In this document: positions 18,960-23,122 of the stretch, one piece after another
How the letters are laid out: every line of letters starts with the position of its first letter
How positions within the stretch are numbered: the stretch's first letter is position 1
Origin: an uncultured Sphingorhabdus sp.
Lineage (GTDB): Bacteria > Pseudomonadota > Alphaproteobacteria > Sphingomonadales > Sphingomonadaceae
Assembly: GCA_964535925.1 (NCBI GenBank)
Contig: CAZHWG010000001.1
Coordinates: 1-32,055, forward strand
Length of the DNA: 32,055 bases
Direction of reading: 5' to 3'
Notes under the pieces: generated by a model
What the model saw: only the letters and a program-made list of their open reading frames with translations
Databases searched by the model: none
What the model was told of the DNA's origin: nothing
Made by a program: the position numbers and the translations under genes

Positions 18960-20303
18960 ATGAAACGAGAAATCGCTGTCACCCAGCTCCAGATTGGCAT
19001 GTTCGTCGACTCCGTCGGCGGTTCGTGGTTTTCCCACCCCTTCTGGCGCAGCCGGCTCAAGATCAAGACCAACGAGCAGGTCGCGGCGTTCATCGAAAGC
19101 GGGATCGAGCGGCTCGTCATCGACACCGATCTGGGTATCGACGTCCCTGACGAGACTGCAACCCCCGAGGTCCAGCCCTTCGGCGCTTCGGCACCCGCCC
19201 GCCGCCGCGCAAGTCCGACGCCGTTTGCATCGGCCAAGCCTTCGCGGACGTTCGGCAAGCGCGAACGCGCCGCAGAGACGATCGACAATTCGAAACGCTT
19301 GGTCAAAACCCTGTACGAACAGGTCCAGTCGGGAGCCGCTGTCGAGCTTTCGCTCGCCGACACCGTGGCCGAAGACATCTGCAATGCGGTCGTCCAGGAT
19401 TCGGTGACGCTGGTCAACATGCTGCGGCTGAAGACCATGGACGAATACACCTATCTTCATTCGATCGCGGTCTGCACGCTGATGATCAAGCTGGCGCGGC
19501 AGCAACGCCTGGCGCAGGACCATGTCGTCCGCCTGGGAGTCGCCGGACTGCTCCACGACATCGGCAAGACCGGCATCCCGGCCGAAATCCTCAACAAGCC
19601 CGAGCCGTTGACCGAAAGCGAATTTGCGCTGGTCAAGGAGCACGCGCAAAAGGGCGCGGCGATCCTGCGCGAGCTGCCCGGCGTGACCGACTGCGCAATC
19701 GAGGTCTGCCTGCACCATCACGAACGCATGGACGGCAAGGGCTATCCCGCAGGGCTCGCCGGCGCCAAGATCGGCCTTCCCGCGCGGATGGGCGCGATCT
19801 GCGACGTTTACGATGCACTGACGTCCGAGCGTCCCTACAAAGAGGCGTGGTCGCCGCAACGCGCGGTCGGCGAAATGCAGAGCTGGAACGGCTGTTTCGA
19901 TCCCGAACTGCTGTTCAGCTTCTGCCAGGCGATCCGCGTCTTCCCGCTGGCATCGGTGGTCAAGCTCGACACCGACCAGCTCGCCGTCGTGATGCCGTCA
20001 AAGACCGACAATTCGCCGCCGCTCGTGCGCGTGTTCTACGACACGCGGCGCGATACGGTCGAACAGCCCGAGGACCTTGTCCTGGGCAACCGCGCCAATC
20101 ACGCGCACATCGTCGCGAGCGTCGACCCGCGGACCTGGCGCGCCGAGGACCCCGCGTCGCTGATCAAATATGTCATGCAGCCGGTCGGCACGATCAACCG
20201 CACCGTCCTGCAGCACATGTGGAACGAACCCCCAGCGGCCCCGGTCATCGGGCCCGACGGCAAAGAGACATCGCCGCAAGCCTTTGCGTGGAAAGCCGCC
20301 TAA
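18960..20303 (+). CDS. HD-GYP domain protein (c-di-GMP phosphodiesterase) with DUF3391-like N-terminus
   Basis: N-terminal QLQIGMFV...WFSHPF; DEYTYLHS, LLHDIGK, HHERMDGKGYP, ICDVYDALTSERPYK. Confidence 0.92.
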   Translation: MKREIAVTQLQIGMFVDSVGGSWFSHPFWRSRLKIKTNEQVAAFIESGIERLVIDTDLGIDVPDETATPEVQPFGASAPARRRASPTPFASAKPSRTFGKRERAAETIDNSKRLVKTLYEQVQSGAAVELSLADTVAEDICNAVVQDSVTLVNMLRLKTMDEYTYLHSIAVCTLMIKLARQQRLAQDHVVRLGVAGLLHDIGKTGIPAEILNKPEPLTESEFALVKEHAQKGAAILRELPGVTDCAIEVCLHHHERMDGKGYPAGLAGAKIGLPARMGAICDVYDALTSERPYKEAWSPQRAVGEMQSWNGCFDPELLFSFCQAIRVFPLASVVKLDTDQLAVVMPSKTDNSPPLVRVFYDTRRDTVEQPEDLVLGNRANHAHIVASVDPRTWRAEDPASLIKYVMQPVGTINRTVLQHMWNEPPAAPVIGPDGKETSPQAFAWKAA

Positions 20304-20310
20304 CGGCCGG

Positions 20311-20871
20311 TTAGACCGACCGCACGATCGCGCGCTGGCCGAAGCTGGCGGGGGCCGCGTTGACCAGTACCCAGCGCAACCCCATCAGCAGCGCGAACCA
20401 GAGCGTGTCGTTGAGCCCGATCGTCGCGACGATATTGGGCGCAAAGGTATCGAGCCCGCCGGCGAACTGTGCCAGCGCGAACAGCGAACCTTCATAAATG
20501 GCGAACGCCGCGACGAAACCCGCGACCATGGCTGCCAGATCGTTCGTCGTGTCGCCGACCCACTGCGTGATCGCGGTCCGGACGAAGCGCGCGGCCACCA
20601 GCGCCGCGATGCTGGCGCCAAGCAGTGCGGCGCCCCAGCCGATCGAATATTGCGTTACCGGATAGTCCATCAGACCATAGCCGATCGCCTGGTTGAGCAG
20701 CCAGACGAGGCCGATGGCGGCCATCGCGCGCCGAATGTCGAGCGTGAACGCGGCAACCGCGGCGGTCGCGGCGAAGGGCAGCACGCATGCGGCGGCAGGC
20801 GCGCCGGCAACGGTCGCCACCGCGAGGACACCGGTCCACAACAGCGCCTGGTTCGATTTGGTCATCGTCAT
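20311..20871 (-). CDS. Small polytopic membrane protein (about 6 TM), probably cobalamin-related
   Basis: 186 aa, hydrophobic, strong RBS AAGGAG, 21 bp downstream of the TonB receptor on the same strand. Confidence 0.8.
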   Translation of the reverse strand: MTMTKSNQALLWTGVLAVATVAGAPAAACVLPFAATAAVAAFTLDIRRAMAAIGLVWLLNQAIGYGLMDYPVTQYSIGWGAALLGASIAALVAARFVRTAITQWVGDTTNDLAAMVAGFVAAFAIYEGSLFALAQFAGGLDTFAPNIVATIGLNDTLWFALLMGLRWVLVNAAPASFGQRAIVRSV

Positions 20872-20892
20872 GTCTTTACTCCTTGATGCCGG

Positions 20893-22821
20893 TCAGAACC
20901 GGGCCTTGATGCCTATATGCGCGCTGCGACCGGGCGTCGCATAGCTAAAGACGTCTTCATAGTCTGCAGAAAACAGGTTTTCGATCCGCGCGAACAGCGT
21001 GACGCGCGCGTCGAGATCGTATCGCGTGCTCGCATTGACGAGCAGATAGTCGTCGAGCGTCACCGTGCGCGGCACGAACGACGGATCGGTGAAAGCGACA
21101 TCGCGCTGGCGCCCGGTATAGCGCGCGACGATCGTCGCAGCGAAACGGCTGGCCGTCGGCGTCCAGTCGACCGCGAGGCTTGCGGTGTGCGCCGGCCGGC
21201 GGACCTCCTCGACGCCGTTCTCGCGCGCGTCCAGCCAGGTATAGGCGCCGTCGATCCGCCAGGCCGGGCTCAGTCGCGCCTGAATATGGGTTTCGATGCC
21301 GCGCTGGCGCGACACCTCGGCGCGATTTCCCGGCGTAGGCACGAAGCCTGGCGGCGGAAAGGTGATGAATATCTCGTCGGTCAGGCGGCTCTGGAACCAG
21401 GTCGCGCCGATCGTCACGCGATCCGCGGCGAAGCGTTGCTCGATCCCCGCCTCCCAGCCGGTCGAACGCTCGGGCTGCAGCCCCGGATTGCCGATGAAGC
21501 GCCCGTCGAAATAGCCATAGAGTTCGTAAAAACCGGGATTCTTGACGCCGGTGCCGAACGCCGCGTGAAGCCGCGTGGCGGCGGCGATGCGGGCCGATCC
21601 GTTGAGGCGGAATGTGGTGACGTCGGCAAAACGGTTGTTCACGTCGTGGCGAACCGCCGCGCCGAGCACGTATGCCTCGCCGATAGTCAGCGCATATTCG
21701 CCGACCAGTCCAAGATTGTCGAAATCGCGCCGGCCGGTAAACGCCATGCCGGTCGGATCGGTATTGCGCGCACTCTCGCGCTCGGCATCGATCGCCAGCG
21801 TGACGCGATGCGCCAGCGCGCCCGCGCCGAAGTGGAGCGTGCTTTCATACGATCCCTTGTAGCGCCGCCCCTCGTTGCCAGAACTGCGGGCATCGCTGCG
21901 ATAGGTGTCGCGCACGCTGTCGGCGACCTGCGCGCTCACGACCTGTTTCCACTTGCCTCCGGCGAGGTCGAGCTCGCCGCGCAGCAGCGCGTAGCGCGCC
22001 GAGTTGACGAATCGCAGTCCCGGCGTGTCGACGATCAGGCCGAAATCGGGGCTGGCGGGATCGCCGTCGACGTCGTTGAAATCGCCCGCGCTGCGCGCAT
22101 AGCGCAACACCGCGGTCAGGCGCGCATTGTGAGCAAGCGAAAGGTTCGATTTTAACGCCAGCCCGCGGCTGTCGCTGCCGAGGTTGCGATTGCCGCCGCG
22201 TGCGCCCGGAGTCCCTTCGCTCGTCGAGTAGCTGCCCGACAGCGCATAATCGAACGCGCCCGAAACCCCTGCCCCGCGCGCCGCCGCGCCGAACGTACCG
22301 AACGATCCCGCCTCGGCGCGCGCGCTCAACCCCGGCGCATCGCGTCCCGAGGCGGTAATGTACTGGACGACGCCGCCGATCGCGTCGGAGCCGTAGAGCG
22401 CGCTCTGCTGGCCGCGCAGAACCTCGATCCGCGCGCCCGGTTCGGCGGTCAGGCCGGCAAAGTCGAACTCGCCCGCGAACGGATCGGACACCTCGATCCC
22501 GTCGATCAGGACGAGGACGTGGTTCGCTTCGCTGCCGCGCAGGCGCAGCTGCGTCTGACCGGGGGTCGCGCCGACCGCGACGCCGGGCACGTCGCGCAGC
22601 AGTTCGGCAACGCTGCGCCCCTCGCGATGGTCGATCGCGGTCGCATCGATGACGGTCACCGAATCGCCGCTGCGGTCGAGCGGCTCGGCCTCGCCCGATC
22701 GCGTGGCGGTGACGACAATCTCTTCATCGGAAGCGAAATCGTCGGACGCAATCGCCTGCGCCCAGCCGGGCGCGGACAACGCCAGCAGTGTCGCCGTGGT
22801 CAGATAATATACGGATTTCAT
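20893..22821 (-). CDS. btuB: TonB-dependent receptor, BtuB-like (642 aa)
   Basis: Signal peptide, TonB box EEIVVTATR, plug motifs LRDVPGV, RGSEANHVLVLIDG, RIEVLRGQQSALYGSDAIGGVV, NPGLQPE, terminal Phe. Start at ATG 22821. Substrate inferred from the riboswitch. Confidence 0.9.
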   Translation of the reverse strand: MKSVYYLTTATLLALSAPGWAQAIASDDFASDEEIVVTATRSGEAEPLDRSGDSVTVIDATAIDHREGRSVAELLRDVPGVAVGATPGQTQLRLRGSEANHVLVLIDGIEVSDPFAGEFDFAGLTAEPGARIEVLRGQQSALYGSDAIGGVVQYITASGRDAPGLSARAEAGSFGTFGAAARGAGVSGAFDYALSGSYSTSEGTPGARGGNRNLGSDSRGLALKSNLSLAHNARLTAVLRYARSAGDFNDVDGDPASPDFGLIVDTPGLRFVNSARYALLRGELDLAGGKWKQVVSAQVADSVRDTYRSDARSSGNEGRRYKGSYESTLHFGAGALAHRVTLAIDAERESARNTDPTGMAFTGRRDFDNLGLVGEYALTIGEAYVLGAAVRHDVNNRFADVTTFRLNGSARIAAATRLHAAFGTGVKNPGFYELYGYFDGRFIGNPGLQPERSTGWEAGIEQRFAADRVTIGATWFQSRLTDEIFITFPPPGFVPTPGNRAEVSRQRGIETHIQARLSPAWRIDGAYTWLDARENGVEEVRRPAHTASLAVDWTPTASRFAATIVARYTGRQRDVAFTDPSFVPRTVTLDDYLLVNASTRYDLDARVTLFARIENLFSADYEDVFSYATPGRSAHIGIKARF

Positions 22822-22934
22822 GTGTCGTTTCCCTTCGCGTTGTCGATCCGGAAGACACCGCGCCTTCCGGACATCGCTCACGCGAGGAAAAACCCCGTCC
22901 GCCCGGCACACCCGTCCGCGCGAAGGAACGACGC

Positions 22935-23122
22935 GGTGGGCAGGTCTCCTGGCTCTCGGGTCGCCGCCCGCATCGCGCCTCGCCTTCCCGGAATGTGTCC
23001 AGTGGCAAAGAGGCGCTTGGGCTCTCCGATGACAGTTGCGGGAGCAGCGCCGGATTGGGTCTTGCGACCGCACCGGCTTCCCTTTTGCTTCCCCCGGCTA
23101 AAGGGGAACCCATCACATGGCG
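22935..23122 (-). ncRNA. Cobalamin riboswitch
   Basis: Minus strand AAAAGGGAAGCCGGTG...AATCCGGCGCTGCTCCCGCAACTGT...GCCACTG...GGGAAGG...GAGCCAGGAGACCTGCC (B12 box). Boundaries approximate. Confidence 0.95.

Follow-up and report, generated by a model that had tools for sequence, protein, structure and literature searches.

In many Gram-negative B12 auxotrophs the outer-membrane receptor BtuB is present and BtuCDF is missing; the importer that serves their inner membrane is described as mostly unknown in the accessible part of one report (PMC6072759). The closest described system is BtuM of Thiobacillus denitrificans (PDB 8OVV, 8C7P), a solitary S-component of the energy-coupling factor (ECF) type, for which the same partial source gives Cys80, in loop L3, as essential and has the cysteine catalyse decyanation; E. 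coli is stated there to have no ECF module (PMC6072759). The present analysis concerns a 32,055-nt stretch of DNA from an uncultured Sphingorhabdus sp. (the window, from whose first letter all coordinates are counted), which holds a minus-strand unit comprising, in order, a cobalamin riboswitch, a TonB-dependent receptor gene and an open reading frame (ORF) for a 186-aa membrane protein. The unit is real and coherent, is unexplained by any named family, and appears to represent a variant, separate from BtuM, of the solitary B12 importers with an S-component fold; its small protein is probably a sequence-distinct, ATPase-free corrinoid importer, in which cobalt would be ligated by a cysteine.

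The 186-aa protein contains a single cysteine (C29) and no histidine, and carries the motifs WLLNQAIG, DYP, WG and YE, as had been read from the sequence in the original prediction. The approximately six hydrophobic segments noted there correspond, in an AlphaFold model, to six helices of membrane length or re-entrant, and the proposed S-component fold gained support, as the 13 best structural matches of the model were S-components without exception, BtuM included. A Foldseek search with the model gave nothing at E<=0.001; its weak rows included RibU and a further S-component, and its re-alignment ranked three S-components first. Charge bias supports a topology with loops L1, L3 and L5 outside. 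Cys29 was kept in every member of two aligned sets (118/118 and 139/139) and, among the best 150 of 927 sequence clusters, in all 149 that align at that site; the search profile itself contains this cysteine, and the weaker 777 clusters lie outside the count. It is the sole conserved cysteine column, and the other near-invariant residues in the 139 members are P32, W57, N60, Q61, G64, Y70, P71, W79 and G80. L3 carries YP, and no histidine is conserved across the family.

Comparison with BtuM revealed a mixture of likeness and difference. Both share the S-component fold (predicted here), a host without an ECF module and an adjacent BtuB-type receptor, but identity in the structural match was only 11%. 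BtuM genes were located by a short motif, with one confirmed against 8C7P/8OVV at E 4e-52, and 64 sequences (62 of the 120 matches listed, plus two loci) were aligned; compared with this alignment by hhalign, the family profile had a probability of 0.13% (E 0.44). The conserved cysteine of BtuM, C80, lies in L3, while C29 of this family lies in L1, and the other conserved residues of BtuM (H28, D67, Y85, R153) differ from the near-invariant set given above. As the loops differ, the S-component fold would have acquired thiolate ligation on two separate occasions. A search (positive control 3/3) found BtuM in none of 63 genomes carrying the family; these are 63 handles for 62 distinct genomes, one having been entered twice, and many are metagenome-assembled genomes of unknown completeness. 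Judged by sequence, the cysteine-bearing family is distinct from BtuM, as the original prediction had suggested it might be.

A search with the family profile recovered 1352 family proteins at 90% clustering (927 clusters at 50%), from Alphaproteobacteria, Planctomycetota, Verrucomicrobia-related and cyanobacterial records, and the names given at source, where present, were 'hypothetical protein'. Neither Pfam nor NCBIfam matched the 186-aa protein, and no Pfam family was common to more than one, nor any NCBIfam model to more than two, of 139 diverse members. The PDB held no match for it by sequence, and the family profiles matched no chain at E<=10. A sample of 141 genomes centred on Rhodobacteraceae gave one strong match, about 202 non-alphaproteobacterial genomes gave none, and a metagenome scan using the cyanobacterial member gave one locus, without riboswitch or receptor. 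No paper describing the family was found in the openly accessible literature searched, and the importers screened for in PMC10378866, as far as its accessible part goes, were BtuCDF, BtuM, Rv1819c and CbrT. The accessible part of another study records the cobalamin regulon 'btuB-PHZ_c1917-btuF' for Phenylobacterium zucineum (Sun 2013, PMC3766115). Since in a Phenylobacterium locus of our set (L017) the riboswitch is followed by the receptor gene, the family gene and a BtuF-like gene in turn, PHZ_c1917 is probably a family member already recorded as an unnamed B12-regulated gene, an assignment made from gene order.

The riboswitch match (Table 1) exceeds the RF00174 gathering score of 31.5 bits and is the only one in its own assembly (2.18 Mb, 86% complete). 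The predicted span needs one correction: the Rfam match reaches 23128 rather than 23122. The 3' tail of the aptamer can form 14 bp with the ribosome site (-19.7 kcal/mol), and a competing alternative hairpin exists; the fold of the whole leader was no better than that of shuffled sequences (z -1.4), and a scan for promoters and terminators returned nothing, with no terminator-like site. The 14-bp pairing is likely to serve translational control of the two genes. For the receptor, TIGR01779 (B12 receptor) was the best NCBIfam model (E 1e-68), and TIGR01779 and NF007926 scored best even though under their curated cut-offs (232 bits against 599.7); receptors from the btuFCD operons of relatives also reach only 317-326 bits on B12-receptor models. 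The best PDB matches were to E. coli BtuB (E 6e-35), and the proposed grouping of riboswitch, BtuB-like receptor and small protein stands. A second BtuB-like receptor fragment (G000:C422:68-1675), with 28% identity to the one in the window, is present in the same assembly. The stop of the receptor gene is 21 nt from the start of the 186-aa ORF, which is preceded by an AAGGAG ribosome site. Within the unit there is no gene for a transporter ATPase, BtuC, BtuF or EcfT, and it ends at a convergent gene, both as first described. Among named relatives the nearest is Sphingorhabdus soli (L002; 93% identity), a cultured carrier without BtuC; its gene order is the same, and the unit is therefore no artefact of assembly.

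Table 1. Features of the B12-regulated unit, in window coordinates
Feature	Position	Strand	Evidence
Six-helix membrane protein of 186 aa with a predicted S-component fold; candidate for a solitary importer of corrinoids	20311..20871	-	
Cys29 codon, predicted periplasmic loop L1, invariant in family	20785..20787	-	Conservation; charge bias for topology
BtuB-like TonB-dependent outer-membrane receptor, 642 aa	20893..22821	-	PF07715 and PF00593
Likely translational expression platform	22824..22932	-	22919-22932 can pair with ribosome-binding region 22824-22839
Cobalamin riboswitch aptamer RF00174	22922..23128	-	Rfam, 109.7 bits, E 7e-27

An even sample of 301 genomes from the order includes 206 of the same bacterial family as the window; of these, 19 carry the protein family and 194 a FecCD permease. 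The latter is most likely BtuC, as a B12 riboswitch was nearby in 11 of the 12 regions examined, for the most part together with a receptor, BtuF-like and cob genes. Among the 12 genomes without FecCD, eight (in six genera) carry this family, one carries DUF6580, in a gene adjoining a riboswitch and receptor, and three carry cobH; the association between carriage of the family and absence of FecCD has an odds ratio of 33 (p 4e-7), a figure inflated by kinship. A second genome of the same genus (G181, 99% complete) encodes two B12-binding enzymes and contains a single riboswitch, at this unit. It gave no match for metE, for cobN, cobH, cobT and cobS, or for FecCD, PF01497, EcfT, BtuM, DUF6580, ABC_membrane_2 and SbmA. 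Because synthesis and nucleotide-loop genes were not found, a cell of this type must import a complete cobamide, and the 186-aa protein is the sole inner-membrane candidate for this found in the gene set tested. The inventory of the window's own assembly (G000) agrees, but at only 86% completeness; it holds a frame that its DxHxxG motif marks as MetH-like.

Gene neighbourhoods were compared in the best 80 of 192 relatives in species-representative genomes, a set biased to close kin. A riboswitch model was derived from seven examples, of which these loci supplied six; it placed 56 sites in 51 of the 80 loci, with a same-strand upstream site in 43 of the 67 having at least 2.8 kb of upstream sequence. 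Rfam confirmed 8 + 6 model-positive loci (all eight tested in one set) and none of 29 model-negative ones. As genomes carry only 1-4 cobalamin riboswitch sites, a chance occurrence is expected in about 1% of 12-kb stretches. Riboswitches were present in 17 of the 19 carrier regions from the same bacterial family, as well as in G181, and in five of six 12-kb regions from an even phylum sample, with none in one 2-kb contig. The predicted linkage of homologs to B12 riboswitches is supported. TonB receptors neighbour the family gene in 42 of the 80 loci, and the six tested scored best as B12 receptors.

We consider it fairly probable that the 186-aa protein mediates solitary, ATPase-free import of corrinoids, with Cys29 as cobalt ligand and trapping in the cytoplasm. 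When B12 is low the ribosome site would be freed and both genes switched on. The receptor would then bring corrinoid into the periplasm, an activity established for BtuB and expected here from homology and the riboswitch. At the inner membrane the corrinoid would be caught in an outward pocket, for which conservation and topology point to L1 (C29, P32), helix 3 (W57, N60, Q61, G64), L3 (Y70, P71) and helix 4 (W79, G80). By analogy with the hypothesis for BtuM, the protein may topple in the membrane and free its cargo inside, with trapping in the cytoplasm by MetH and further B12-dependent enzymes as the driving force. For the family as a whole the probabilities are evenly balanced that its members are widespread stand-alone importers, with L1 Cys-cobalt ligation independent of BtuM, that replace BtuCDF in streamlined Alphaproteobacteria and serve broad-specificity precursor import where BtuCDF is kept.

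Several observations weigh against a role purely as a replacement. The absence of btuCDF foreseen in the original prediction holds for G000 and G181, where neither EcfT nor BtuC was found, but is a strong tendency and no rule, since 11 of the 19 carriers in the same bacterial family keep a BtuC-type permease. In eight of these 11 the family gene lies in a separate riboswitch unit, before cobT. Among the 63 carriers, FecCD was found in 43, EcfT/CbiQ in 13 and cobH/cbiC in 22. No riboswitch was found in 29 of the 80 loci, including seven of the Rhodopila type, and the cyanobacterial copy (L154) comes after genes for a BtuB-like receptor and a DUF7676-ferredoxin, again without a cobalamin riboswitch.

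The position before cobT suggests, for BtuC-keeping carriers, a role with incomplete corrinoids or in processing. It is conceivable, though improbable, that the protein binds corrinoids mainly to process or select them (removal of the upper ligand; cobinamide, cobyric acid), bulk import taking another route. The cobT-fronting units mostly also hold cobC, cobS, cobD and cobQ-type salvage genes, cbiZ follows the family gene in three loci (L072, L170, L172), and the decyanation catalysed by the BtuM cysteine is a precedent. However, G181, G070, G217 and G277 have neither cobT nor cobS, so that complete cobamides are needed, and no BtuC-type permease was found there; the mutual exclusion with BtuC points towards import.

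There is a small chance that the protein does not act alone but supplies the membrane component of a multi-subunit system whose partner has gone unrecognised, such as an ECF module, a leaderless BtuF-like protein, DUF7676 or DUF6925. Leaderless PF01497 proteins occur in 15 of the 80 loci, DUF6925-type proteins in 12 and DUF7676 in 10, and the EcfT/CbiQ genes counted above would fit as well. Yet none of these was found in G000, and G181 gave no match for PF01497 or EcfT. The protein resembles ECF S-components (RibU, ThiT, BioY, PanT, FolT, CbrT, CbiM/NikM) in topology and predicted fold, but the module-dependent ones need EcfT/EcfA, and EcfT (PF02361) was found in none of five genomes tested and none of the 19 carriers in the same bacterial family. 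Module-dependent S-components also have an AxxxA motif in helix 1; in this family strict AxxxA occurs in at most 21 of 139 members, and a small-xxx-small pattern at positions 20/24 in 94 of 139.

Transport of cobalt (or zinc) ions by a solitary counterpart of CbiM/NikM, an option the original prediction had left open, is very unlikely. The metal S-components have a conserved N-terminal Met-His metal site, while the 186-aa protein and the family's conserved positions are devoid of histidine. Moreover, cobH/cbiC is missing in 41 of the 63 carriers, including all 19 in the same bacterial family, leaving no use of cobalt for ring synthesis, and the partner receptor is BtuB-like, in L154 too. Least probable of all is import of a lower-ligand base or alpha-ribazole, as by the S-component CblT, since, in spite of the frequent position before cobT-cobC-cobS, 11 of the 20 carriers examined, G000 among them, lack cobT and five of five lack cobS, and a free base requires neither a TonB receptor nor an invariant cysteine.

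Two other small families invite comparison. DUF6580 (PF20221) is of like size, ranks closest among named families by language-model features (0.83, no more than a lead), and, like this family, adjoins B12 riboswitches and TonB receptors in BtuC-less genomes. It carries PHPxN in L1 and no L1 cysteine, in contrast to Cys29 here; the family profile matched it with a probability of 8% over 36 columns, PF20221 matched none of 139 members, and no genome of the 301 holds both. Identity of DUF6580 with BtuM was considered and rejected (no PDB match, profile probability 10%), and on sequence comparison it is a third family, separate from both. DUF6580 genes stand beside B12 riboswitches and TonB receptors at L138 (G231), L139 (G013), L082 and L084, and FecCD is missing in four of 15 carriers (G231, G009, G013, G129), compared with 19 of all 301 genomes; DUF6580 seems to be a further solitary importer of B12. 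CbtC is likewise a small, B12-regulated predicted membrane protein of Alphaproteobacteria. In the accessible parts of the sources it is recorded from 18 organisms, all B12 producers, many of them Rhodobacterales and six beta- or gammaproteobacteria, in units cbtC-cbiA, cbtC-cobW-cobN and cbtC-cobFT (Zhang 2009, PMC2667541; Sun 2013, PMC3766115); the present family differs from this in distribution and gene context.

With eight of the 12 BtuC gaps in one bacterial family filled, and 927 clusters known, the candidate importer, if real, would improve prediction of B12 uptake ability in microbial communities. It would also supply a second one-gene case for asking if a solitary S-component can transport without ATP and if such transport depends on ligation of cobalt by a cysteine.

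The gene neighbours include several recurrent types. In PF01497 proteins encoded next to the family gene, the N-terminus mostly lies 5-9 residues ahead of the domain; these proteins have no signal peptide and fall into two subtypes (L017, L019, L021, L023, L030-L033, L036, L042, L048, L054, L057, L108, L110, L113); a cytoplasmic corrinoid trap is a possible role. DUF7676 (PF24724), DUF6925 (PF21973) and DUF1636 (PF07845) recur with the family gene in B12-riboswitch units (L030, L034, L057, L078, L107, L153-L155, L170, L172, L173), and in L078 DUF7676 also lies beside btuF- and btuD-like genes. Also present, as isolated cases, were cobO, cobS/cobT, cbiZ, cbtA, nrdAB, a metE fragment and Rhizobium btuFCD-type genes. 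On a Gloeocapsopsis plasmid (L154:860-12420) the BtuB-like receptor, DUF7676-ferredoxin, family and DUF1636 genes lie inside a thrS/folE/GTPase/hisI/cysS cluster resembling a zinc-starvation regulon. As Anabaena has a ferredoxin-like gene between btuB2 and btuFCD, according to the accessible part of PMC10878165, the cyanobacterial family gene may, by analogy, occupy the place of btuFCD.

Rhodopila-type copies (L025, L035, L047, L056, L075, L079, L080) follow CoA-transferase III and enoyl-CoA hydratase genes, and in the five such genomes tested neither a full-length FecCD nor cobH was found. Elsewhere the family gene is the last in riboswitch units of B12-independent substitutes, namely a Rieske oxygenase with reductase and class I nrdAB (L081:3315-6543, L055:1491-6543, L060, L061). 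In the window, a terminator scan found no terminator-like site between the unit and the convergent DUF3391/HD-GYP-type gene (18960-20303, plus strand), the stop codons of the two being 7 nt apart. This gene is the last of a flagellar cluster that flanks the unit; the opposite flank carries rsmB, a dGTPase-like HD gene and ftsZAQ.
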